IMG/VR virus record: IMGVR_UViG_2687453449_000005
Location: 1 to 11,394 of that record
Strand: one strand, 5' to 3'
DNA length: 11,394 nucleotides
From: a virus
Lineage: Duplodnaviria > Heunggongvirae > Uroviricota > Caudoviricetes
Positions 1 to 11,394 of the stretch are shown here, one piece after another. The position numbers were made by a program, and so were the translations under genes. Each line of letters opens with the position of its first letter. Positions within the stretch are counted from its first letter, which is position 1. The notes below the pieces were generated by a model. The model was not told the DNA's origin. It ran no database searches and was given only the letters and a program-made list of their open reading frames with translations.

Positions 1-90
1 TCACTCTGCCAGATGGCGCAATGCCATCTGGTATCACTTAAAGGTATTAAAAACAACTTTTTGTCTTTTTACCTTCCCGTTTCGCTCAAA
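1..90. other. Host chromosomal flank of the lambda attB site (B' arm side of attR)
   Basis: Reverse complement of 60-97 reads ...CAAATTAGTATAAAAAAGC preceded by GAGCGAAACGGGAAGGTAAAAAGACAAAAAG, which matches the E. coli attB/attR B' arm as I recall it (CTTGAGCGAAACGGGAAGG...). Recall-based; not verifiable here. Confidence 0.7.
9..31. repeat. Inverted repeat hairpin CCAGATGGC-GCAAT-GCCATCTGG in host flank
   Basis: Perfect 9-bp arms with a 5-nt loop seen directly. No adjacent T-run on either strand, so a terminator role is not supported; function unknown. Confidence 0.4.
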
Positions 91-105
91 TTAGTATAAA
101 AAAGC
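91..105. other. attR core: 15-bp lambda common core (TTAGTATAAAAAAGC = reverse complement of GCTTTTTTATACTAA)
   Basis: Exact 15-bp core string, flanked on one side by host-like sequence and on the other by lambda P-arm-like sequence. Confidence 0.85.
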
Positions 106-250
106 TGAACGAGAAACGTAAAATGATATAAATATCAATATATTAAATTAGATTTTGCATAAAAAACAGACTACAAAATACTGTAAAACACAACATATGC
201 AGTCACTATGAATCAACTACTTAGATGATATTAGTGACCTGTAACAGAGC
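106..250. promoter_or_regulatory. Lambda attP P arm (Int arm-type / IHF / Xis / Fis binding region), here part of attR
   Basis: TGAACGAGAAACGTAAAATGATATAAATATCAATATATTAAATTAGATTTTGCATAAAAAACAGACTAC...CAGTCACTATGAATCAACTACTTAGATG.TATTAGTGACCTGTAACAG matches the lambda P arm as recalled, in reverse-complement orientation. Confidence 0.8.
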
Positions 251-292
251 ATTAGCGCAAGGTGATTTTTTGTCCTCTTGCGCTAATTTTTT
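251..292 (+). terminator. sib / tI-like hairpin with T-run (lambda int retroregulation and terminator element)
   Basis: ATTAGCGCAAGG ... CCTCTTGCGCTAAT inverted repeat followed by TTTTTT, about 150-190 bp from the core on the P-arm side, where lambda sib/tI lies. Confidence 0.65.
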
Positions 293-783
293 GTCAACTC
301 ACTGGGTTAGTTGAATTTACAACCATGCTCAGTATCTCGATAAGCGCAGGGAGATGATGCAGTGGTGGGCGGACTGGCTTGATGAAAGTGTGCTGTAATC
401 CTCATATCCAACCTAAGAGATATGCACAATTTTGTGAATAAGATATTGAGAATTAGCAAAAGTTTTATTTTGCGTATCATCAATTCAGAATACAAAGTCA
501 CATGCTAATGTTCTGCATTGGTATCTTTTGCTTATCCATGTCTACATTATCGCCAAAATAATAGGTTTTGTCTATCAATTATTTGAATTACTTCCATGAA
601 ATTATAACGCACTTGTAATTTTTGATTATTTTTACCTCTCAAGTGTTTTGTTTCTTCTATCTCTTTGTATTTTTAGCGAAAGTATGCCATATTGCATTCT
701 AATATAACGTGGCGTTGTTTCTGTTTAATGATTTAAATAGTTCAACATAATATTTGCTAACAAATTATATCCAAGCAAATCAT

Positions 784-1929
784 ATGATATTATCATTACA
801 ATATATTAGAGGAATAGCATCATTACTTGTTGTTTTATTCCACTTCAGATTCTTGCTAAATGAGCACTACTCTCAGAAAGATTTGGGTGACCTATTATTT
901 GGGAATGGGCTGTCTGGAGTTGATATATTCTTCATATTAAGTGGATTTATCATCGTATACTCAACAAGAAAGAAGGAAGTTAATGATACTTTCTCATTCT
1001 CAATTAGAAGAATATTTAGAATATACCCATTACTAATCACATGCTGTTGCATGTATTACATAATAAACACTCAATTTCTAACCTATGCTACAGTTGAAAA
1101 CTTTAGAACCTTACTTATTTCCATCATTCCATTAAATATAAACTGGAATGAAGGCGCTCCATTCTTTGCCTATAATCTTTTGTACCCGGCCTGGACGATA
1201 ACATATGAAATTGGTTTCTATGTTTTTTTCGGGGTATCAATGTCTATTTCGCATAAATACAGAACAATTATCTGTTCTGTTTTTATAATCATGGTGGTCT
1301 CATTTACACAATACTATGTAAATGGAAATATATCATTTTCAGGTGATGTTAGTGCAGGGTTATTTACAGATAACTGGTTATTAGGATATACAAATGTTAT
1401 TACATCTCCAATGATGTATGAATTCGTTATTGGGATGTTTCTTTCTGAAATATTTACAAACATCAACGAAAGCAAAAGTATTAAAAGGATACTTTCAAAG
1501 TATTCGCTTCAAATACTATGGATTTCATGTGGTATATCCATAATATTATTCATTATCCAGCGACCTTATGGGCATGGATTGAATGGATTTGGGACTATGG
1601 CGATGATACTTATTGCATCATCATTAGTATATGAATACTGCAATATAACACCCAAAATAAAAATATTTAATTTCCTTGGTGAAATATCATATTCTTTATA
1701 TCTAATTCACGCCGTGATACTTGCTTTGTTCTTCTATTATAAGGCAGACCTTGCTGAAATTGGCATAACTGGTGGATTTTCTGTGTTTTTTTCCTTGGTT
1801 ATTATCTCAATAACTGCATCATATCCAATATATATTCTCATTGAAAAGCCAATGATAAATATAGGTAAACGTTTAATTGACAAGAGAAATAAGAGCATTA
1901 ACAAAAAAGAAACCGAAATAACAGCGTGA
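784..1929 (+). CDS. Acyltransferase family 3 (AT3) integral membrane O-acyltransferase, Oac/OafA-like; candidate surface-polysaccharide O-acetylase
   Basis: Track ORF 754..1929 starts at TTG; first ATG is 784 (MILSLQYIRGIASLLVVLFHF). AT3 hallmarks: N-terminal R...H in TM1 (YIRGIASLLVVLFH), GxxGVDIFFILSGF, and RRIFRIYP motif. Highly hydrophobic and AT-rich. Confidence 0.8.
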   Translation: MILSLQYIRGIASLLVVLFHFRFLLNEHYSQKDLGDLLFGNGLSGVDIFFILSGFIIVYSTRKKEVNDTFSFSIRRIFRIYPLLITCCCMYYIINTQFLTYATVENFRTLLISIIPLNINWNEGAPFFAYNLLYPAWTITYEIGFYVFFGVSMSISHKYRTIICSVFIIMVVSFTQYYVNGNISFSGDVSAGLFTDNWLLGYTNVITSPMMYEFVIGMFLSEIFTNINESKSIKRILSKYSLQILWISCGISIILFIIQRPYGHGLNGFGTMAMILIASSLVYEYCNITPKIKIFNFLGEISYSLYLIHAVILALFFYYKADLAEIGITGGFSVFFSLVIISITASYPIYILIEKPMINIGKRLIDKRNKSINKKETEITA

Positions 1930-1942
1930 TAATGACAAAGTT

Positions 1943-1964
1943 AGTGCCGGGATACCCCGGCACT
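1943..1964. terminator. Bidirectional intrinsic terminator candidate between convergent genes
   Basis: AGTGCCGGG-ATAC-CCCGGCACT perfect 9-bp stem, followed by ATTTAATCTATTT on + and a T-containing tract on -. Sits between the stop at 1929 and the - strand stop at 1967. Confidence 0.5.
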
Positions 1965-1966
1965 AT

Positions 1967-3304
1967 TTAATCTATTTCGTAAGTGACAGTGATTATCACT
2001 TCTGCATTATTACCCAAAACATTTTGATATATATTCATATTACCTGATAATGTAGTTGCTCCAGTAAGAGTTATATAACTACTATTTGCATCAACCCTTG
2101 GAAGTAAAGCGGTAACTGCTGTTGTTAAATTATTATAGTAGCCTGTACTTCCAACATATGCAGCTTTATTGCTTGATACATATGGTAACCCTCCAATTCT
2201 GAAACCATCTCCTGACCCAATTAAAGTTATACCAAGGTGACATGTTGCCGTTATGATATTGCCACTCCTGACATAATTTCCTTTCTGCTGATAATATGTG
2301 GCATTACCACCTACAGTCGGAATCCAAACTCCAGTTTCTATATCACCACATGACCAGTCTTCTGCTGTTGTTAGTTTTCCAGTAACAATAAATTTACTTC
2401 CACCACCAGAATTATAAGGAACAAAAATTGGATTTATTCTTGCATAAGTGTTACCGGTCTGCTCATTAAGATCATTTCTATCAATAAGAACTTGACCATT
2501 TTCGAAGTTTGAAATCTGGCAGTCTGTTACACTCCAGTCTCTTAACTTCACATCAGCATCCATGACACCAATAAGCTTACCAGCATTACCAATTTTTTCT
2601 TTATGCATATTTACATACACATTTCTTACCGTAACAGACTGAGGGAACAGATAATTAGCAGGATTAGTTTTATCACTTAAAACAGATATTACCCAAGGTC
2701 TGTATTGAGTACTTACTTCACAATAAAATCCATCAATAAGCGTTCCAGATGCCGCTGGCCCAAGTAGTATTCCACCTGTAGAGTGATGCGCACTACCTCC
2801 AATTACTCTCCCCTTAACGCAGTTAATATAGGCAAAATATCCTAAATCTTGATTGTCATAGGCTGACATAGCACAGTCTCTAACTGTTACTCGAGAATTT
2901 CCTCCGTCATAAGCTGAGCCATCAGTTTTCTTACCAACTATTGATATAAAGTTACCAATAGCAACTCGACTATAAAAAGTTTTTTTATAACACCCCTCAA
3001 TTAAAATATCCCAGTTTTCAAACTGAGCATATATATCATAAGAGCTGGCATTCCCATAATCTATGAAATCACAATATCTTATTTTCGGCGTATAAACGGC
3101 ACTTTTTATCTTTATACCACCTAATGCTCTCTCCCCACCTGTGAATCTAATGCCAGTAACGGTGTAATCGCCTTGATAGAAATTATCTGCGGTAGGATTA
3201 TTTTCGTCAGAATCATCACCCAATATAATAGCAAATTCACTCCCTGAATAATTAATTGTCGCCCCCTTATTTGAATATATAGTTACAGGTCTTATAAACT
3301 CCAA
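1967..3304 (-). CDS. Tailspike/tail-fibre-like receptor-binding protein, putative right-handed beta-helix glycanase domain; probably 5'-truncated remnant
   Basis: 445-aa ORF rich in G/N/S/T/Y/V with repeated short beta-strand-like segments (e.g. VTVRDCAMSAYDNQDLGYFAYINCVKGRVIGGSAHHSTGGILLG), typical of pectate-lyase-fold tailspikes. The ORF begins at TTG directly after an in-frame TGA; first in-frame ATG is far inside; no head-binding N-terminal domain. Confidence 0.5.
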   Translation of the reverse strand: MEFIRPVTIYSNKGATINYSGSEFAIILGDDSDENNPTADNFYQGDYTVTGIRFTGGERALGGIKIKSAVYTPKIRYCDFIDYGNASSYDIYAQFENWDILIEGCYKKTFYSRVAIGNFISIVGKKTDGSAYDGGNSRVTVRDCAMSAYDNQDLGYFAYINCVKGRVIGGSAHHSTGGILLGPAASGTLIDGFYCEVSTQYRPWVISVLSDKTNPANYLFPQSVTVRNVYVNMHKEKIGNAGKLIGVMDADVKLRDWSVTDCQISNFENGQVLIDRNDLNEQTGNTYARINPIFVPYNSGGGSKFIVTGKLTTAEDWSCGDIETGVWIPTVGGNATYYQQKGNYVRSGNIITATCHLGITLIGSGDGFRIGGLPYVSSNKAAYVGSTGYYNNLTTAVTALLPRVDANSSYITLTGATTLSGNMNIYQNVLGNNAEVIITVTYEID

Positions 3305-3623
3305 AGAATTACTTATTAGATACTCTCCATAAGGAAAAAAATCTCAACTGGTGGTGAGTACTTTGGTCTGGAGTTTACGTAATTCATAATATTGATTACA
3401 CCAACATCATAGATAATCGCCACCTTCTGGCGAGGAGCTCCTGATGCAATTAATCGCCAGGCCTACGCCCATTATTCAGGGGTAAATTTTGGACGGAGCC
3501 CCCAATTCCATCCTCAATTCTCCCTCGCACTGAGGAGTAGTAAGTGCAATTATTTAAAAAATCGCAAACAGAATATTATCATTTATTCTTGCATTCTGTT
3601 AATTAAAACCACACATAAAAACG

Positions 3624-3653
3624 TTGATACTTGATAAGTAAGTAGAGTATTAT
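3624..3653 (+). promoter_or_regulatory. Sigma70-like promoter candidate for the downstream acyltransferase
   Basis: TTGATA (3624-3629), 18-bp spacer, TATTAT (3648-3653), about 40 bp upstream of the ATG at 3697. AT-rich context, so false positives are likely. Confidence 0.3.
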
Positions 3654-3696
3654 TAATGGTTTTAATAACGAACCTTTTAATCATGAGAAGCCTCAA

Positions 3697-4722
3697 ATGA
3701 CTAGTACCAATAACATAACAAGAAAAAAAATGGATGGAGTAACAATCTTAAGATTTATAGCTGCTTTTTATGTGTTTATTTTTCACATTAACATGAGAGT
3801 CCCCGTTAATTTTGGAGAGCTTATTAATAAAACCATTAGCAATGGCGTCATTGGCATGAGTATTTTCTTCATGCTTTCTGGTTTTGTTTTGACTTATAAT
3901 TACTATGGTTCCTTGTCAAACAATTACTTCAGGAAGCGAATAGCAAGAATATTTCCAGCCTATTTATTTTGTGGGCTTTTAACCCTCCCATTTTTGTTAT
4001 CCAGCGATGCAAGCTTTTTAAAAATGATTGCAAGCATATTCTTGTTTGTTACTGGAATGCAATCATGGATTTATCAGACCTTCGATTTTTGGAATTTTAG
4101 CGGTACCTGGTCAATATCAGTGGAATTGTTTTTTTATGCCCTGTTTCCATTTTTGATAAAAAACATCAACAAAAACAATGTAATTTATGTTTTACTTTTT
4201 TCATATTTATCTTCAGCATTATTAATCCCATTATCTGATATAATTCAGGGACCTGTAGTTTGGTCCGTATATTACGCAACTCCAATATACAGGTTACCAG
4301 AATTTGTGGTGGGCGTCTGTATCGCAATACTTTTTTTAAATGGCTATCGTGTTAACCATTATACATGGCTATTAAGCATTTTATTATTTCTGTATGCTAC
4401 CACCCAGCAAAACAATAACTCCATGGGGGTGAACTATCTCACAATTCCTGCGATATCAATTATGTTATTGCACCTGGCAAAAATCAACATCAAAAACAAT
4501 ATTGCAAACAGAGCGATCATTTACTTTGGAGATATAAGTTATTCGTTTTATTTGATGCAATTACCTATATTATATTACCTGGATCATAATAAAAACTCAT
4601 TTATTCTTAACTATGGTCTTTTTAGCTGGCTTGTACTTTTTGTTATTAATACTGCAATGGCATCATTATCTTATCACTTTCTGGAGAAGAACGATAAAAT
4701 CAGAAAAATAATTACATCCTGA
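3697..4722 (+). CDS. Acyltransferase family 3 (AT3) integral membrane O-acyltransferase, second divergent copy
   Basis: ATG start; ILRFIAAFYVFIFH (R...H), GVIGMSIFFMLSGF, and RKRIARIFPAY motifs. Shares family motifs with the 784..1929 protein but is otherwise clearly divergent. Alternative start at the internal M (MDGVTIL...). Confidence 0.8.
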   Translation: MTSTNNITRKKMDGVTILRFIAAFYVFIFHINMRVPVNFGELINKTISNGVIGMSIFFMLSGFVLTYNYYGSLSNNYFRKRIARIFPAYLFCGLLTLPFLLSSDASFLKMIASIFLFVTGMQSWIYQTFDFWNFSGTWSISVELFFYALFPFLIKNINKNNVIYVLLFSYLSSALLIPLSDIIQGPVVWSVYYATPIYRLPEFVVGVCIAILFLNGYRVNHYTWLLSILLFLYATTQQNNNSMGVNYLTIPAISIMLLHLAKINIKNNIANRAIIYFGDISYSFYLMQLPILYYLDHNKNSFILNYGLFSWLVLFVINTAMASLSYHFLEKNDKIRKIITS

Positions 4723-4723
4723 T

Positions 4724-4749
4724 TTATTAGGGGGGTACCCCCCTAATAA
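4724..4749. terminator. 26-bp perfect palindrome TTATTAGGGGGGTACCCCCCTAATAA; bidirectional terminator candidate or protein-binding site
   Basis: Perfect 12-bp arms around a central TA, between the convergent stops at 4722 (+) and 4764 (-). No strong U-run, so terminator function is uncertain. Confidence 0.45.
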
Positions 4750-4763
4750 TACACCACATAATT

Positions 4764-5159
4764 TCAACGTATTATCTCTGGCCTTTCTGGCCAGGTTATT
4801 TCTGGAATTAAGGACAAATCCACTGACATTAAATTATTAACATATTCCTTCCATAACAAAAGATTGTTCTTGTTATTTTCACTTATAATACCGAGTAACA
4901 AATCTGACTGCCAGTTCATAATTAAACCATTAGCACTATCCAGCAGACACTGTCTTTCATTCTCTGCCTCACGAAGTAATTCATCATGTGTTTTTGGCGG
5001 CTGCGTAGGTGACGAAAGCTTTCCCTTATCATAGAACCAACCAATTCTTACATTATCGGATACAGGTATAACTAACGCATTAGTTGGTTGCCAGGCACTC
5101 TCACCATCCCATACCGCAATATTGGTAACAACACCATTTTCTATAACGGCATAGTTCAT
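4764..5159 (-). CDS. Tail fibre assembly protein (Tfa-like chaperone)
   Basis: Track ORF starts at TTG (5174); first ATG at 5157-5159 gives MNYAVIENGVVTNIAVWDG... (131 aa), with Tfa-like LGIIS motif and C-terminal W/P-rich tail. The ATG overlaps the upstream stop in a TGATG arrangement (translational coupling). Confidence 0.7.
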   Translation of the reverse strand: MNYAVIENGVVTNIAVWDGESAWQPTNALVIPVSDNVRIGWFYDKGKLSSPTQPPKTHDELLREAENERQCLLDSANGLIMNWQSDLLLGIISENNKNNLLLWKEYVNNLMSVDLSLIPEITWPERPEIIR

Positions 5160-5644
5160 CACGCATACTCCCAAATGATTGCAATACCAGCCATTCCGCT
5201 ACCTCCGGCACGCTGCTGCGTCGCTCCACCGTAGACACAGGCACCACCGCCTCCACCACCATGGCCATTAGCATTAATACCTTCGCCTACAATGGCTTGT
5301 GACCCAGCCCCCGCACCAAGGATTGAATCGCCGCCAGGCCCCCCCATCGCCAGACTGCCGGAATACCGAACGCCTGGTGAGCTATAACCGCTTCCAGACC
5401 CGATAATATTTGCACCTGTAAATCCCGGCTCAGTATATGCTCCATACGGACCAACAACCCCTGGAGCAGTTCCTTCAGCAAGAACATTCCCACCAAGGCC
5501 ACCTTTGGCAATTATGGTATTGCCGAAAGAGGTTGTTCCCCCGGGAGCACCAACCGACGCACTTGCACCAGTGCCACCATATCCGATTGTCACAGTAGTT
5601 ACGGTTGGATTATCCACGCGAGCTTTAACATACTCCCCGGACAT
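5159..5644 (-). CDS. Tail fibre protein, glycine-rich C-terminal (receptor-binding) domain; likely remnant of a longer side-tail-fibre gene
   Basis: 161 aa, extremely Gly/Ala/Ser/Thr-rich (GGxG repeats, GHGGGGGG), as in C-terminal domains of enterobacterial prophage side tail fibres; immediately followed by tfa. ATG start is preceded by a G-run with no properly spaced SD. Confidence 0.6.
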   Translation of the reverse strand: MSGEYVKARVDNPTVTTVTIGYGGTGASASVGAPGGTTSFGNTIIAKGGLGGNVLAEGTAPGVVGPYGAYTEPGFTGANIIGSGSGYSSPGVRYSGSLAMGGPGGDSILGAGAGSQAIVGEGINANGHGGGGGGACVYGGATQQRAGGSGMAGIAIIWEYA

Positions 5645-5666
5645 CCCCCCGCCACCACAAGCAGCA

Positions 5667-6428
5667 TTATTGGGATAGCTTCTCCACGCTGTAGGTACGC
5701 AAATGCGCTTTGTAGACCAGCTGCGCCGCGCCGACAGTAGCGCTGTCGAACGCGGTAAGACGATCCCAGATACGCTCTACAACCGACATTCCCCATTCGT
5801 TCTCGGTCATCTTCTGCTGAAATGGCAGCGTGACGCCATCAAAGCGAATCAGTCGACTGTGATGAATGCGCCAGGCAGGAATTCCCGTTGCTGTGGTCAC
5901 CACATCGTAAAACTCAGGTTTACCCAGGTCCGGCCCCATATCTTTAATGCGGCGGGTCAGTACCGGGTCAATCATCCAGCGGTCGAGCGGGAGAATCCCC
6001 TTAAACTTGCCCTTACCGATGGTTTCGGGTCGCAGCGGGGTCATTGGTGCCTGCCCCTCAATCATGATGAAACCCACCGCGCCGCCGTAGAGGCGCGACC
6101 ATTTCAGCACGTCATTCAGCGCATCCCAGATTTGCAACTCATCCAGTTGTGATTCGAGAATGCCACGATCTTTTGCATCAATTTCCGAAGTGATGCGAAT
6201 GCCTTTGCGGGTCATATCATCTGGGATAGCATCGACCGCTTCGCCGATGATCCAGGACGAACGATAGGACCATTCCACCAGCATGCGGTTACGACTGGTG
6301 AAATTAGCCCGGTAGGTGGATGCTGAGTGCTGGTTAGGTGTCTGCATCCCTACGCGGGCAATAAAATTCTCATAACCATCAGCTGTGGCCTGCGCAGTTC
6401 GCCGCAGGGCTTGTTTGTTTCGTGCCAT
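5667..6428 (-). pseudogene. Probable portal protein, N-terminal fragment (253 aa), truncated by deletion
   Basis: Start ATG overlaps the terminase large subunit stop (TGATG), the usual terL-portal coupling. At 253 aa it is far shorter than any portal and is followed after 22 bp by a tail-fibre C-terminal ORF. Portal assignment is by position and general character only. Confidence 0.45.
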
Positions 6429-8050
6429 CAGGCCTGTCTCCCTAGCAGCTCCCAGATGTTCAGGGCTGAATTCATTGGGGCATAGTTGATCATCACCGAG
6501 TCGGCAAGGTTTGGCGATCGGGTTCCATCAGGCTGTTTATCAATAACGATTTTTCCCACACCATTAATGGAATAGGTCGGCTGCGAAAGCTCGATGATGA
6601 GTTTATCTTTGAGTGCCATGCTACTGCTGATTGAGATGATTTCGTCCGGGTTGTAAGCCATACCTTCAACCACGGCGCGCCAGGTATTCTGAAAAAGTTT
6701 ACGTAACCGCCACCAGCTCTGGGCTTTGGCGTTAGCGAAGAAGTCCTTGTTCAGACGTGCGGCTTGCCCGTTGTCCCCGCGAACAGCTTCATCATCTGGA
6801 TCAAATACCGCGCCACTACCTCGAAACGGTGTGGCGAGTATTGACGGTCGACGCGCAACGTTACGCAGTTCGTTGATAGCGCGTGCATCGCCGCGAACGC
6901 CAGCGCCCAGCCCGTCCTCGTCAAAGCGAAACTCTTCGAGGTTGTCCTGTTCGCAAAAACCGAAAACCTTCTCGACGGACTGATAAATGTCACTGCCCAC
7001 ACCGGACCATTCCCGCACATTTTCCAGGAGGAAGCCATGACGGGTGGAAAATGCATTTTTGTCCCTGCCTTCGTCGGCGACATCCATCGCGCCAAGTCGT
7101 TTGCCTGTTGGCTGGATACCCAGTTTGATATGTGCATCAACGGCAGCCTGTACCCATTCGGATGGAATCAGGACGCCTTCCGCTGATGCGCTGTAGTTCA
7201 GATCAAGTTCCTGTGCCACCACCACCGGATTATCGATTTTCTCGCATTCCCTGCGATACCACTCTTCATCCTTGCGAGGATCATCCCGCCAGTGGAATGT
7301 GAATACCGGTATCTTCCCGCCATGACGCTTCTGAGCGAACGGGTTCGCCATGCCGTTAACTGAACTCAGGTCAATACGGCAACGCGTCGTTTGTGACAAC
7401 GCCGCATCAATCAGCAGAGGACGCTGAAGGAATGCAGCCTCATCAACCAGATAAAGCGTGGTACGGTCACCACGACCAATATTATCGCCAGCCTCGCCTT
7501 TGATAACGGCACCAGTTTCAGGAAACTCAACACGCATATATGGCGCGTGCTTCTTCTCGCTCCACGAACCGCGAAACTCTACAGGTAGTGTTTCCACGAA
7601 CTTGCGCGCCTTCCAGAACAATGCTTTCGGGTCACCGGTGCTGTCGACGTATTCCTCTTTACGGGAGCCGAAACCGATAACCATTTCTTTGTTGAAGAGA
7701 CAAAGCGAGCAGGCCAGTCCGATCGCGGTCCAACTGAGCCCCATTTCACGGGATTTTTCGGTAATACCATTCTCCCTATTGCCCCAGCGTTCCATAATCC
7801 AGTGGATCCACTCCTCCTGCTTAGGGAAGAGTAAAAACGGAATGGTCACCGGCAGGCCATAATCAATATTACGCGGGTCCGTTGTCATGCCCCAGTCGAT
7901 GATGAACTGAGCCGGGTTGGTTCGGTAAAACTGTTTTAGTGCTGGCAATATTTCAGGGTTCTGGCGAATGCGCTGTAAGCGTTCCATCCGCCATTCAAAA
8001 ACCATCTGGTAATCAGGATTTTTAAAATCGAAGGGGAATGGTAACGGCAT
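6428..8050 (-). CDS. Phage terminase large subunit (ATPase + nuclease)
   Basis: 540 aa; Walker-B-like [10 protein letters not shown]-terminal nuclease-domain motifs ([22 protein letters not shown]) of the kind seen in P22/Sf6-type terminases; ATG start 2 nt after the terS stop. Confidence 0.85.
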
Positions 8051-8052
8051 AC

Positions 8053-8559
8053 TTAGCCCATCATTTTTCTATACGCCTCTGCAGCCTGCTCCGGCGTTAA
8101 GTTGGTAATTTCTGTTCTGACTGGTCCTCCATCAGCGCCAGTCACTTCATTTTTGACGTTGTCTTTAAACGCCTGAACAGAAACATGACGCCCAAGCAAC
8201 TCAAGGTTTTTAACCTTATCAGGCCATTTGATTTTCTTCAGAAGTGCGGCGCTATCTGCGGATACCATCTCCATGACATCCATTCCTGATAGCGTTGTGC
8301 GCCATACCTTAGGCCAGTCTTTAATGGGTTTTAGATCACCGTTTTGCAGGAGAATGTCGAGCACATCCATCTGGTCGATTTCAATAAGGCGATTAAGTAC
8401 ATATTCTGCATTAATACCAACAAGATCATTGCGTTGCGCTTTCAGTTCAGCGATTCTGAATTGTATGTCAGGTTTTGACAGGTTTTCGGATGCGGTACGG
8501 TTAGCTGTCTTTGCGCTGTACCCCGCCCGAATATCGGCAATGAATAACAATCCTCGCAC
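8053..8559 (-). pseudogene. Terminase small subunit, N-terminally truncated at a recombination junction
   Basis: ...IRAGYSAKTANRTASENLSKPDI matches the conserved terS block, but the preceding residues do not resemble a terS N-terminus; the only start is GTG, an in-frame TAA lies 5 codons upstream, and no SD is present. Confidence 0.6.
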
Positions 8560-8581
8560 TCGCGGGGATTTCTTTTATCTG

Positions 8582-8607
8582 AACTCGCTACGGCGAGTTT
8601 TGTTTTA
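8582..8607 (+). terminator. Intrinsic terminator candidate (AACTCGC-TACG-GCGAGTT then TTGTTTT)
   Basis: 7-bp stem plus T-rich tract seen directly; lies in the junction/intergenic zone upstream of the 55-aa ORF. Confidence 0.3.
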
Positions 8608-8619
8608 TGGAGATGATAA

Positions 8620-8787
8620 ATGCACTTCCGAGTCACAGGTGAATGGAATGGAGAACCATTCAACAGAGTTATCGAAGCGGAGAACATCAACGACTGCTAC
8701 GACCACTGGATGATATGGGCGCAGATAGCACATGCAGACATAACCAATATTCGAATTGAAGAACTGAAAGAACACCAATCCGCCTGA
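8620..8787 (+). CDS. Small hypothetical protein (55 aa), lambda orf55-like, upstream of xis
   Basis: ATG at 8620 with GGAG 8 nt upstream; open frame to TGA at 8785-8787 (MHFRVTGEWNGEPFNRVIEAENINDCYDHWMIWAQIAHADITNIRIEELKEHQSA). Same position and size as the 55-codon ORF next to xis in lambda. Absent from the ORF track, presumably by length cutoff. Confidence 0.6.
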   Translation: MHFRVTGEWNGEPFNRVIEAENINDCYDHWMIWAQIAHADITNIRIEELKEHQSA

Positions 8788-8799
8788 TGGCGGTTTTTT
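8780..8799 (+). terminator. Small hairpin + T6 (CCGCC-TGAT-GGCGG-TTTTTT) directly after the 55-aa ORF
   Basis: 5-bp GC stem, 4-nt loop containing the ORF stop codon, and six T; seen directly. Not a named lambda terminator that I can recall. Confidence 0.3.
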
Positions 8800-8800
8800 C

Positions 8801-8840
8801 TTGCGTGTAATTGCGGAGACTTTGCGATGTACTTGACACT
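8801..8840 (+). promoter_or_regulatory. pI-type cII-dependent int promoter (TTGC-N6-TTGC box)
   Basis: TTGCGTGTAATTGC at 8801-8814 is a cII recognition repeat just upstream of and overlapping the xis start, as for lambda pI, whose transcript starts inside xis. Confidence 0.5.
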
Positions 8841-9045
8841 TCAGGAGTGGAACGCTCGCCAGCGACGCCCAAGAAGCCTTGAAACAGTTCGTCGATGGGT
8901 GCGCGAATGCAGGATATTCCCTCCTCCGGTTAAGGATGGAAGAGAATATCTGTTCCACGAATCAGCGGTAAAGGTTGACTTAAATCGACCAGTAACAGGT
9001 AGCCTTTTGAAGAGGATCAGAAATGGGAAGAAGGCGAAGTCATGA
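8827..9045 (+). CDS. xis: Excisionase Xis (lambda Xis, 72 aa)
   Basis: MYLTLQEWNARQRRPRSLETVRRWVRECRIFPPPVKDGREYLFHESAVKVDLNRPVTGSLLKRIRNGKKAKS matches lambda Xis as recalled; GGAG SD 9 nt upstream; 23-nt overlap with int as in lambda. Confidence 0.95.
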   Translation: MYLTLQEWNARQRRPRSLETVRRWVRECRIFPPPVKDGREYLFHESAVKVDLNRPVTGSLLKRIRNGKKAKS

Positions 9046-10093
9046 GCGCCGGGATTTACCCCCTAACCTTTATATAAGAAACAATGGATATTACTGCTAC
9101 AGGGACCCAAGGACGGGTAAAGAGTTTGGATTAGGCAGAGACAGGCGAATCGCAATCACTGAAGCCATACAGGCCAACATTGAGTTATTTTCAGGACACA
9201 AACACAAGCCTCTGACAGCGAGAATCAACAGTGATAATTCCGTTACGCTACATTCATGGCTTGATCGCTACGAAAAAATCCTGGCCAGCAGAGGAATCAA
9301 GCAGAAGACACTCATAAATTACATGAGCAAAATTAAAGCAATAAGGAGGGGGCTGCCTGATGCTCCACTTGAAGACATCACCACAAAAGAAATTGCGGCA
9401 ATGCTCAATGGATACATAGACGAGGGCAAGGCGGCGTCAGCCAAGTTAATCAGATCAACACTGAGCGATGCATTCCGAGAGGCAATAGCTGAAGGCCATA
9501 TAACAACAAACCCTGTCGCTGCCACTCGCGCAGCAAAATCAGAGGTAAGGAGATCAAGACTTACGGCTGACGAATACCTGAAAATTTATCAAGCAGCAGA
9601 ATCATCACCATGTTGGCTCAGACTTGCAATGGAACTGGCTGTTGTTACCGGGCAACGAGTTGGTGATTTATGCGAAATGAAGTGGTCTGATATCGTAGAT
9701 GGATATCTTTATGTCGAGCAAAGCAAAACAGGCGTAAAAATTGCCATCCCAACAACATTGCATGTTGATGCTCTCGGGATATCAATGAAGGAAACACTTG
9801 ATAAATGCAAAGAGATTCTTGGCGGAGAAACCATAATTGCATCTACTCGTCGTGAACCGCTTTCATCCGGCACAGTATCAAGGTATTTTATGCGCGCACG
9901 AAAAGCATCAGGTCTTTCCTTCGAAGGGGATCCGCCTACCTTTCACGAGTTGCGCAGTTTGTCTGCAAGACTCTATGAGAAGCAGATAAGCGATAAGTTT
10001 GCTCAACATCTTCTCGGGCATAAGTCGGACACCATGGCATCACAGTATCGTGATGACAGAGGCAGGGAGTGGGACAAAATTGAAATCAAATAA
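9023..10093 (+). CDS. int: Tyrosine integrase (lambda Int, 356 aa)
   Basis: MGRRRSHERRDLPPNLYIRNNGYYCYRDPRTGKEFGLGRDRRIAITEAIQ...SQYRDDRGREWDKIEIK matches lambda Int essentially throughout; catalytic residues at lambda numbering R212, K235, H308, R311, H333, Y342 are all present. Confidence 0.97.
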   Translation: MGRRRSHERRDLPPNLYIRNNGYYCYRDPRTGKEFGLGRDRRIAITEAIQANIELFSGHKHKPLTARINSDNSVTLHSWLDRYEKILASRGIKQKTLINYMSKIKAIRRGLPDAPLEDITTKEIAAMLNGYIDEGKAASAKLIRSTLSDAFREAIAEGHITTNPVAATRAAKSEVRRSRLTADEYLKIYQAAESSPCWLRLAMELAVVTGQRVGDLCEMKWSDIVDGYLYVEQSKTGVKIAIPTTLHVDALGISMKETLDKCKEILGGETIIASTRREPLSSGTVSRYFMRARKASGLSFEGDPPTFHELRSLSARLYEKQISDKFAQHLLGHKSDTMASQYRDDRGREWDKIEIK

Positions 10094-10172
10094 TGATTTT
10101 ATTTTGACTGATAGTGACCTGTTCGTTGCAACAAATTGATAAGCAATGCTTTTTTATAATGCCAACTTAGTA
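10094..10172. other. attL remnant: lambda P' arm plus first 6 bp of the core (TTAGTA), interrupted by IS10
   Basis: AATGATTTTATTTTGACTGATAGTGACCTGTTCGTTGCAACAAATTGATAAGCAATGCTTTTTTATAATGCCAAC + TTAGTA matches the lambda P' arm up to the core, then breaks into an IS10 end. Confidence 0.85.
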
Positions 10173-11394
10173 CTGAGAGATCCCCTCATAATTTCCCCAA
10201 AGCGTAACCATGTGTGAATAGATTTTGAGTAAGCAGGGTTGCAGCCACGAGTGAGTCTTCCCTTGTTATTGTGTAGCCAGAATGCCGCAAAACTTCCATG
10301 CCTAAGCGAACTGTTGAGAGTACGTTTCGATTTCTGACTGTGTTAGCCTGGAAGTGCTTGTCCCAACCTTGTTTCTGAGCATGAACGCCCGCAAGCCAAC
10401 ATGTTAGTTGAAGCATCAGGGCGATTAGCAGCATGATATCAAAACGCTCTGAGCTGCTCGTTCGGCTATGGCGTAGGCCTAGTCCGTAGGCAGGACTTTT
10501 CAAGTCTCGGAAGGTTTCTTCAATCTGCATTCGCTTCGAATAGATATTAACAAGTTGTTTGGGTGTTCGAATTTCAACAGGTAAGTTAGTTGCTAGAATC
10601 CATGGCTCCTTTGCCGACGCTGAGTAGATTTTAGGTGACGGGTGGTGACAATGAGTCCGTGTCGAGCGCTGATTTTTTCGGCCTTTAGAGCGAGATTTAT
10701 ACAATAGAATTTGGCATGAGATTGGATTGCTTTTAGTCAGCCTCTTATAGCCTAAAGTCTTTGAGTGACTAGATGACATATCATGTAAGTTGCTGATAGG
10801 TTTCCAGTTTTCCGCTCCTAGGTCTGCATATTGTACTTTTCCTCTTACTCGACTTAACCAGTACCAACCCAGCTTCTCAACGGATTTATACCATGGCACT
10901 TTAAAGCCAGCATCACTGACAATGAGCGGTGTGGTGTTACTCGGTAGAATGCTCGCAAGGTCGGCTAGAAATTGGTCATGAGCTTTCTTTGAACATTGCT
11001 CTGAAAGCGGGAACGCTTTCTCATAAAGAGTAACAGAACGACCGTGTAGTGCGACTGAAGCTCGCAATACCATAAGTCGTTTTTGCTCACGGATATCAGA
11101 CCAGTCAACAAGTACAATGGGCATCGTATTGCCCGAACAGATAAAGCTAGCATGCCAACGGTATACAGCGAGTCGCTCTTTGTGGAGGTGACGATTACCT
11201 AACAATCGGTCGATTCGTTTGATGTTATGTTTTGTTCTCGCTTTGGTTGGCAGGTTACGGCCAAGTTCGGTAAGAGTGAGAGTTTTACAGTCAAGTAATG
11301 CGTGGCAAGCCAACGTTAAGCTGTTGAGTCGTTTTAAGTGTAATTCGGGGCAGAATTGGTAAAGAGAGTCGTGTAAAATATCGAGTTCGCACAT
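10173..11394 (-). mobile_element. IS10 (IS4 family), partial in window: inside end at 10173, element continues about 107 bp beyond the window
   Basis: Terminal CTGAGAGATCCCCTCATAATTTCCCCAAAGCGTAACC matches the IS10 inside end as recalled. Transposase stop lies 14-16 bp inside this end and the 402-codon ORF starts at the last window base, fitting the 1329-bp IS10 layout. Confidence 0.93.
10186..11394 (-). CDS. IS10 transposase (DDE, IS4 family), complete 402 aa
   Basis: MCELDILHDSLYQFCPELHLKRLNSLTLACHALLDCKTLTLTELGRN... with DAGF and YSKRMQIEETFRDLK (YREK signature) motifs; matches Tn10/IS10 transposase as recalled. Confidence 0.95.
   Translation of the reverse strand: MCELDILHDSLYQFCPELHLKRLNSLTLACHALLDCKTLTLTELGRNLPTKARTKHNIKRIDRLLGNRHLHKERLAVYRWHASFICSGNTMPIVLVDWSDIREQKRLMVLRASVALHGRSVTLYEKAFPLSEQCSKKAHDQFLADLASILPSNTTPLIVSDAGFKVPWYKSVEKLGWYWLSRVRGKVQYADLGAENWKPISNLHDMSSSHSKTLGYKRLTKSNPISCQILLYKSRSKGRKNQRSTRTHCHHPSPKIYSASAKEPWILATNLPVEIRTPKQLVNIYSKRMQIEETFRDLKSPAYGLGLRHSRTSSSERFDIMLLIALMLQLTCWLAGVHAQKQGWDKHFQANTVRNRNVLSTVRLGMEVLRHSGYTITREDSLVAATLLTQNLFTHGYALGKL

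Follow-up and report, generated by a model that had tools for sequence, protein, structure and literature searches.

Excision of lambda-type prophages by the integrase Int relies on a contiguous C'-overlap-B (C'-O-B) core, on both core-type sites flanking the overlap region, and on an overlap that is identical to that of the partner site. Int is a bivalent protein that binds arm-type as well as core-type sites, and in the attL intasome the IHF bend at the H' site brings arm-bound Int to the adjacent core. Lambda-B is a 12.1-kb prophage that occupies att-lambda in the Escherichia coli B lineage (PMC4395058). In this study, we describe a lambda-B remnant in which the attL core beside int is parted by a complete copy of IS10, and we discuss what this arrangement would mean for the excision of the element.

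The window, i.e., the whole stretch of 11,394 nucleotides that was analysed, is an exact substring, in reverse complement, of a locus (L004) in CP013048.1, the genome of the chicken-pathogenic, avian pathogenic E. coli (APEC) RS76 from Brazil (ST93, O7). RS76 is a field isolate and not a laboratory strain (PMC4732331). Positions 1-10172 of the window are, with the exception of one gap, 100% identical to the ybhB-ybhC interval of E. coli B chromosomes (REL606, BL21 and others). When 20 kb of the RS76 locus (L004 1-20507) were aligned with the REL606 locus (L001), 0 mismatches and only two differences were found, namely a 1329-bp insert, which is IS10, and a 2009-bp internal deletion. The RS76 element is, thus, a member of lambda-B, lying at the same ybhB/ybhC site and being 100% identical to the REL606/BL21 element save for these two changes. 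Concerning the strain itself, the approximately 18.5 kb of sequence around att-lambda shared with E. coli B REL606 contain zero SNPs, and the sequence points to RS76 as a wild strain very closely related to the B lineage.

The relevant features are given below. The boundaries of the attR sub-sites were taken from established lambda att maps, and the arm-type Int sites P'1-P'3 and the H' site were placed according to the established lambda attP map.

1-90, no strand: host DNA on the ybhB/bio side (flank of the B' arm), equal to the K-12 ybhB-ybhC intergenic region except at position 90, and 100% identical to REL606
87-107, no strand: attR core with B' at 87-93 (CAAATTA), overlap at 94-100 (GTATAAA) and C at 101-107, as aligned to lambda attP and K-12 attB
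106-250, no strand: lambda-like P arm of attR, from the alignment with the attP of lambda J02459, with substitutions at 176 and 228
8529-8533, no strand: junction of the 2009-bp deletion relative to the lambda-B of REL606, with a 5-bp microhomology (GAATA); L001 12534-14542 is missing
8827-9045, plus strand: xis, 72 aa, 71 of 72 residues identical to lambda Xis
9023-10093, plus strand: int, a full-length ORF of 356 aa, 353 of 356 residues identical to lambda Int, with matches to Pfam families
10090-10141, no strand: P' arm sites, identical in sequence to lambda, with P'3 at about 10090-10100, P'2 at about 10101-10110, P'1 at about 10111-10121 and H' (IHF) at about 10129-10141
10163-10172, no strand: truncated attL core, made up of C' (CAACTTA, 10163-10169) and the first three overlap bases (GTA, 10170-10172)
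10164-10172, no strand: AACTTAGTA, the left-hand copy of the 9-bp duplication; its right-hand counterpart follows 1329 bp on, beyond the window, at L004 7050-7058
10173-11394, minus strand: IS10, beginning with its inside end at 10173; 1222 bp of the 1329-bp element lie in the window, and the absent 107 bp comprise the outside end and most of RNA-OUT
10186-11394, minus strand: complete 402-aa DDE transposase of IS10 (PF01609); the window ends at its ATG

Directly after the int stop codon, 79 bp (10094-10172) match the lambda P' arm with 100% identity as far as CCAACTTAGTA and finish in ...GCCAACTTAGTA. The arm with P'1-P'3 and H' is, thus, present next to int, in agreement with the initial annotation, which had been made from the window and had described the P' arm as intact. 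Position 10172 of the window corresponds to position 27733 of lambda. As the annotated 15-bp core of lambda extends from 27724 to 27738, the overlap TTTATAC is located at 27729-27735, and the break falls between 27732 and 27733, inside the overlap. Three of the seven overlap bases have stayed with the P' arm, while the other four and the B site are missing from this side. A contiguous C'-overlap-B core adjoining the P' arm is absent, since the 1329 bp of IS10 begin directly after GTA; at the inside-end junction, ...GCCAACTTAGTA meets CTGAGAGATCCCC, while the attL of REL606 is uninterrupted (...CCAACTTAGTATAAAAAAGCAGG or, over another stretch, ...CCAACTTAGTATAAAAAAGCAGGCTTCAACGG). Alignment to lambda and to IS10 copies therefore bears out what had been proposed for this end of the element: a core that ends at 10172 with IS10 starting at 10173, a break within the 7-bp overlap, and the loss of a contiguous P'-core-B attL, the P' side and the ybhC side of which now lie 1329 bp apart.

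The sequence from 10173 onward is 99.8% identical to plasmid-borne IS10 copies, including those of Tn10 on R100, and about 99.5% identical to chromosomal ISVsa5 copies. In the Tn10 of R100, it is the CTGAGAGATCCCC termini that point towards the jem/tet genes, those with CTGATGAATCCCC being directed outward; hence, the terminus at 10173 is the inside end. The termini of the RS76 copy, CTGAGAGATCCCCTCATAA at window position 10173 and CTGATGAATCCCCTAATGA (reverse complement) at L004 7059, were both aligned to the two Tn10 copies of R100, and both the assignment to IS10 and the naming of the inside end in the initial annotation are upheld by sequence identity and by the orientation of the R100 termini. 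RNA-OUT was found with Rfam RF00240 at L004 7104-7173 on the minus strand (98.8 bits; gathering score, 41), the last 8 nt of which are contained in the window (11387-11394).

Over approximately 100 bp at its inside end, the RS76 IS10 resembles the R100 copy next to jemA/gltS (IS10-Left position), whereas the outside end is like that of the copy beside tetD. At the level of single positions, it is IS10-Left-like at 49, 58-59, 62, 81, 427 and 920, and IS10-Right-like at 30 and 905 as well as across the outside-end region. A transposase of exactly this sequence is widespread in wild isolates, being present in 832 blocks of the collection, and in CP099877.1 it is encoded at both ends of a Tn10. 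An origin as IS10-Left from a laboratory Tn10, by a Tn10-derived rearrangement in a laboratory B strain, was also considered and was rejected in view of the mosaic allele, the frequency of the protein in the wild and the field-isolate host; nothing points to a laboratory Tn10 origin.

Past the end of the window, the RS76 sequence continues with the IS10 outside end, a second AACTTAGTA, TAAAAAAGC, the B arm of the host and ybhC, which is intact. At the outside-end junction, ...GGGGATTCATCAG is followed by AACTTAGTA and then by TAAAAAAGCAGGCTTCAACGG and ybhC, with the outside-end sequence also given as ...ATTAGGGGATTCATCAG and ...AAAATCATTAGGGGATTCATCAG; the IS10 junction strings in RS76 are GCCAACTTAGTACTGAGAGATCCCC and GGGGATTCATCAGAACTTAGTATAAAAAAGC. 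The start of ybhC is reached 64 bp on and is followed by ybhJ and ybhI, all of them intact, collinear and 100% identical to REL606. The same 9 bp of REL606 (L001 16178-16186) align on both flanks of the 1329-bp insert. This is the arrangement that had been predicted for a simple IS10 insertion if one read past the window, and the 9-bp duplication together with the intact, collinear host DNA establishes that history.

The duplicated target is centred on CTTAG, so that the earlier remark that the 9 bp beside the IS carry the CTNAG centre of the IS10 target preference proved correct; the reconstructed 10,193-bp pre-insertion sequence contains only 21 CTNAG sites (0.2% of positions). Compared with the IS10 target consensus NGCTNAGCN (GCTNAGC), the central CTNAG is present and the outer G/C are replaced by A/T, with four of six positions matching. 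A full element with both termini and a 9-bp duplication favours a real transposition event, as had been surmised from the target motif. Since the insertion has parted the phage P' from the host B, it occurred later than the integration of the prophage, and the lack of any SNP against REL606 makes a recent date probable.

For the opposite end of the element, the initial annotation had considered attR at 91-250 to be intact. This stands for the presence of the 15-bp common core (91-105) and of the P arm, but not for the sequence of the P arm, which differs from lambda at 176 (T replaced by A) and at 228 (G replaced by A). In addition, the B' core-type site has A at position 90 where K-12 has G, i.e., CAAATTA for CAAGTTA. 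We take position 176 to lie in the Xis X1 site and position 228 to lie between H1 and P1. The same bases at 90, 176 and 228 are found in REL606 and BL21 and are, thus, a feature of lambda-B across the B lineage.

Apart from the genes within the 2009-bp deletion, the gene content of lambda-B is kept in RS76. The deletion takes out the N-terminus of the small terminase, a 182-aa ORF, the Rz1-like lysC, the DUF551 and DUF4752 genes and most of the ASCH gene, and produces a chimeric 168-aa ORF, for which an exact-sequence look-up returned CP013048.1 as the single genome. Morphogenesis genes are present as fragments only (the small terminase is truncated, a 540-aa ORF is probably the large terminase, and there are a portal fragment and a gene for tail-fibre assembly), and the other genes of the remnant are two acyltransferase genes of the Acyl_transf_3 family, xis and int. 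A repressor, replication genes, N/pL early control or a cII region were neither annotated nor recognisable in the remnant, including the region upstream of xis, which contains small ORFs and the deletion junction only. As a phage, the remnant is non-viable.

Several further observations concern the content of the remnant. The cargo block spans window positions 754-4722, with the Acyl_transf_3 genes at 754-1929 and 3697-4722 (both on the plus strand) and, between them on the opposite strand, a 445-aa ORF (1967-3304, minus) of no known family. In this O7 strain, the block might serve to modify surface polysaccharide (lysogenic conversion). The annotations of window 5667-6428 (minus strand) disagree: the REL606 counterpart is labelled "anti-CBASS protein Acb1 family protein (incomplete)" in RefSeq, while Pfam gives a match to Phage_portal_3 (1e-55) that covers only the first approximately 207 of 357 profile positions. 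The extent of the profile match suggests that the portal gene is truncated. Immediately interior to attR, where the similarity to lambda ends, there is a short ORF fragment (window 315-398, plus strand) with the C-terminus ...QWWADWLDESVL*, listed in RefSeq as an N-terminally truncated pseudogene. It looks to us like the C-terminus of another integrase; a Pfam search with this 27-aa fragment (window 315-395) gave no match.

The explanation that fits these data best is that a single IS10 moved by cut-and-paste into the attL core of a lambda-B that was already integrated in an ST93 E. coli, APEC RS76, and that the 9-bp target AACTTAGTA, covering C' and the first three overlap bases, was duplicated in the process. 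In RS76, attL exists as two pieces 1329 bp apart. The int-side piece comprises the intact P' arm, C' and three of the seven overlap bases before the IS10 inside end, and the ybhC-side piece follows the outside end as gAACTTA-GTATAAA-AAAGCAG, a near-complete C'-O-B core devoid of an arm or an IHF site. The ybhC-side core (L004 7038-7059) retains the full overlap and B together with six of the seven bases of C', i.e., 20 of the 21 bases of C'-O-B. It is in principle attB-like for incoming lambda-family phages.

As neither half of attL provides what lambda Int needs, excision by Int/Xis should be abolished or reduced to an undetectable level. Int and Xis would be expected to fail either in building the excisive attL intasome or in completing strand exchange with attR, and removal of the remnant by site-specific excision would first need the precise excision of IS10, which is a rare event. 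We estimate the probability of this overall reading, that IS10 has split attL and excision has been lost, at roughly 85%; the anatomy of the locus is near certain, and the loss of excision is what we infer from the mechanism of lambda Int.

Other readings of the insertion itself have to be weighed. Tn10-promoted deletions leave inside-end junctions, and an inside-end junction is all that the window contains; besides simple insertion, the initial annotation had accordingly named an IS10/Tn10-promoted adjacent deletion, and either this or an inversion could have fused the inside end with the attL core while eliminating the B arm together with host DNA. Such an event, with a new joint, loss of host DNA and no duplication, is refuted by the outside end, the duplicate AACTTAGTA, the rest of the core, the B arm, ybhC, ybhJ and ybhI, which are all present and collinear, and we assign it practically no probability. 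An assembly or scaffolding artefact is hardly more credible, even though IS copies are typical collapse points in short-read assemblies. The RS76 genome was assembled from Illumina paired-end and mate-pair reads (150 bp and 100 bp), was ordered on BL21(DE3), and had its gaps closed with PCR/Sanger sequencing (PMC4732331), so that the interior of the IS10 could be a consensus drawn from more than one copy. Against an artefact stands the perfect 9-bp duplication around a full 1329-bp element on an IS10 target motif, a product that misassembly does not yield; at the sequence level, the two junctions and the duplication are strong evidence that the insertion is real.

Granting a real insertion, its effect on excision can be read differently. 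Low-level excision might persist if P'-bound Int looped over the 1.3-kb IS10 to the ybhC-side core, whereby the excised circle would carry IS10 and leave a clean attB. The bivalence of Int and the whole overlap, B site and six of seven C' bases on the ybhC side speak for this; however, the attL intasome depends on the sharp IHF bend at H' right beside the core, the first consensus base of C' is altered from C to G, and we know of no Int reaction with a 1.3-kb separation of arm and core. We regard looping as quite improbable. Considerably more weight, if somewhat short of an even chance, is given to the view that the insertion is real but neutral, in that the remnant had already been unable to excise itself and the lock matters only in the presence of Int/Xis from a superinfecting lambda-family phage. 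Given the lack of a recognisable pL region upstream of xis and the extra 2-kb deletion, the remnant may indeed have been immobile on its own; what is left of it is morphogenesis fragments, two acyltransferase genes, xis and int; upstream of xis, neither a repressor nor an N/pL or cII region is annotated or can be recognised, another 2009 bp are missing there from RS76, and attR is substituted in B' and near X1. On the other hand, int and xis are both intact ORFs with 99% identity to lambda, and the att sites are otherwise intact in REL606 and BL21. Moreover, BL21(DE3) lacks lambda-B and carries DE3 in its site (PMC4395058), which implies that the uninterrupted element was displaceable with lambda functions, by whatever mechanism.

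The split attL with loss of Int/Xis excision thus being the preferred reading, possible effects of the insertion on neighbouring DNA deserve mention. The gene ybhC is located at L004 5711-6994 on the minus strand, with its GTG start 64 bp beyond the IS10 outside end, and RNA-OUT lies on the same strand. From the Rfam match to RNA-OUT and published IS10 biology, the promoter pOUT is predicted to be co-oriented with ybhC, approximately 110-180 bp upstream of its start. A simple scan of the outside-end/ybhC region for the sigma-70 consensus returned no promoter-like site. That the insertion is non-neutral, in that the acyltransferase genes would be fixed in an O7 avian pathogen even against Int/Xis of a superinfecting phage and that pOUT may drive ybhC, is a speculation to which we attach little probability. 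If true, the loss of attL would amount to a permanent fixation of two acyltransferase genes with a possible role in surface-polysaccharide modification.

As to recurrence, none of 5426 complete RefSeq E. coli genomes contained the P'-IS10 junction, whichever way IS10 was oriented, the opposite orientation having been searched with a synthetic query. Exact matches to either IS10 end at this position were found neither in IMG/VR nor in JGI metagenome contigs, and no relevant work on IS10, attL and prophage excision was found in the literature. With no second case in the 5426 genomes, IMG/VR and JGI metagenomes, the idea of a hotspot or of recurrent insertion at this attL position is unsupported. 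Comparable IS hits were seen in other prophages: the int gene of a lambdoid prophage close to panC is split by IS10 in the poultry strain E2 (NZ_CP104509.1, 839174-841585), and strain 2e carries IS10 in the early-left part of a complete lambda-like prophage that occupies the same att site at ybhC (NZ_CP103295.1). The insertions in the E2 and 2e prophages are independent of the RS76 event.

The locus represents a natural case of cryptic prophage fixation, in which the recombinase genes survive while the crossover site is split by an IS, and it reveals that the C'/overlap junction of lambda holds a usable IS10 target. By a speculative extension, to which we likewise attach little probability, ACTTAGT at this junction might be a usable IS10 target in every lambda-type attL/attP, which would offer a general route of prophage immobilisation. 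For RS76, the lambda-B remnant and its cargo should not be curable by Int/Xis, and the classical att-lambda site is altered. The consequence is small, the remnant having been non-viable already and the event being confined, so far, to one isolate.

All components of the locus, i.e., IS10, the lambda att sites and lambda-B, are known, and their combination is an ordinary, if unusually neat, prophage grounding and not a new system. Compared with lambda-B of REL606 and BL21, the RS76 copy occupies the same site and is 100% identical in nucleotide sequence over everything shared, but lacks 2009 bp and carries IS10 in the attL core. The inserted element has the characteristics of IS10 (IS10-Right/ISVsa5, IS4 family, of Tn10), namely 1329 bp, both ends, a 402-aa DDE transposase, RNA-OUT, a 9-bp duplication and a CTNAG-centred target; it differs from the Tn10-borne IS10 of R100 in being a mosaic of the two R100 copies, and its target agrees with GCTNAGC at only 4 of the 6 positions. 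With the attL (B-O-P') of lambda, the site has in common an identical P' arm, Int and Xis that are 99% identical, and the same core sequence, whereas in RS76 C' and 3 bp of the overlap are parted by 1329 bp from the full overlap and B. Grounding of prophages by IS elements is common in general, the exact RS76 event being unique so far. As in the IS-grounded cryptic prophages of E. coli, an IS has broken a component that is needed for excision; in contrast to these, the recombinase genes of the RS76 remnant are untouched, and it is their DNA substrate that has been hit, at the region of strand exchange.
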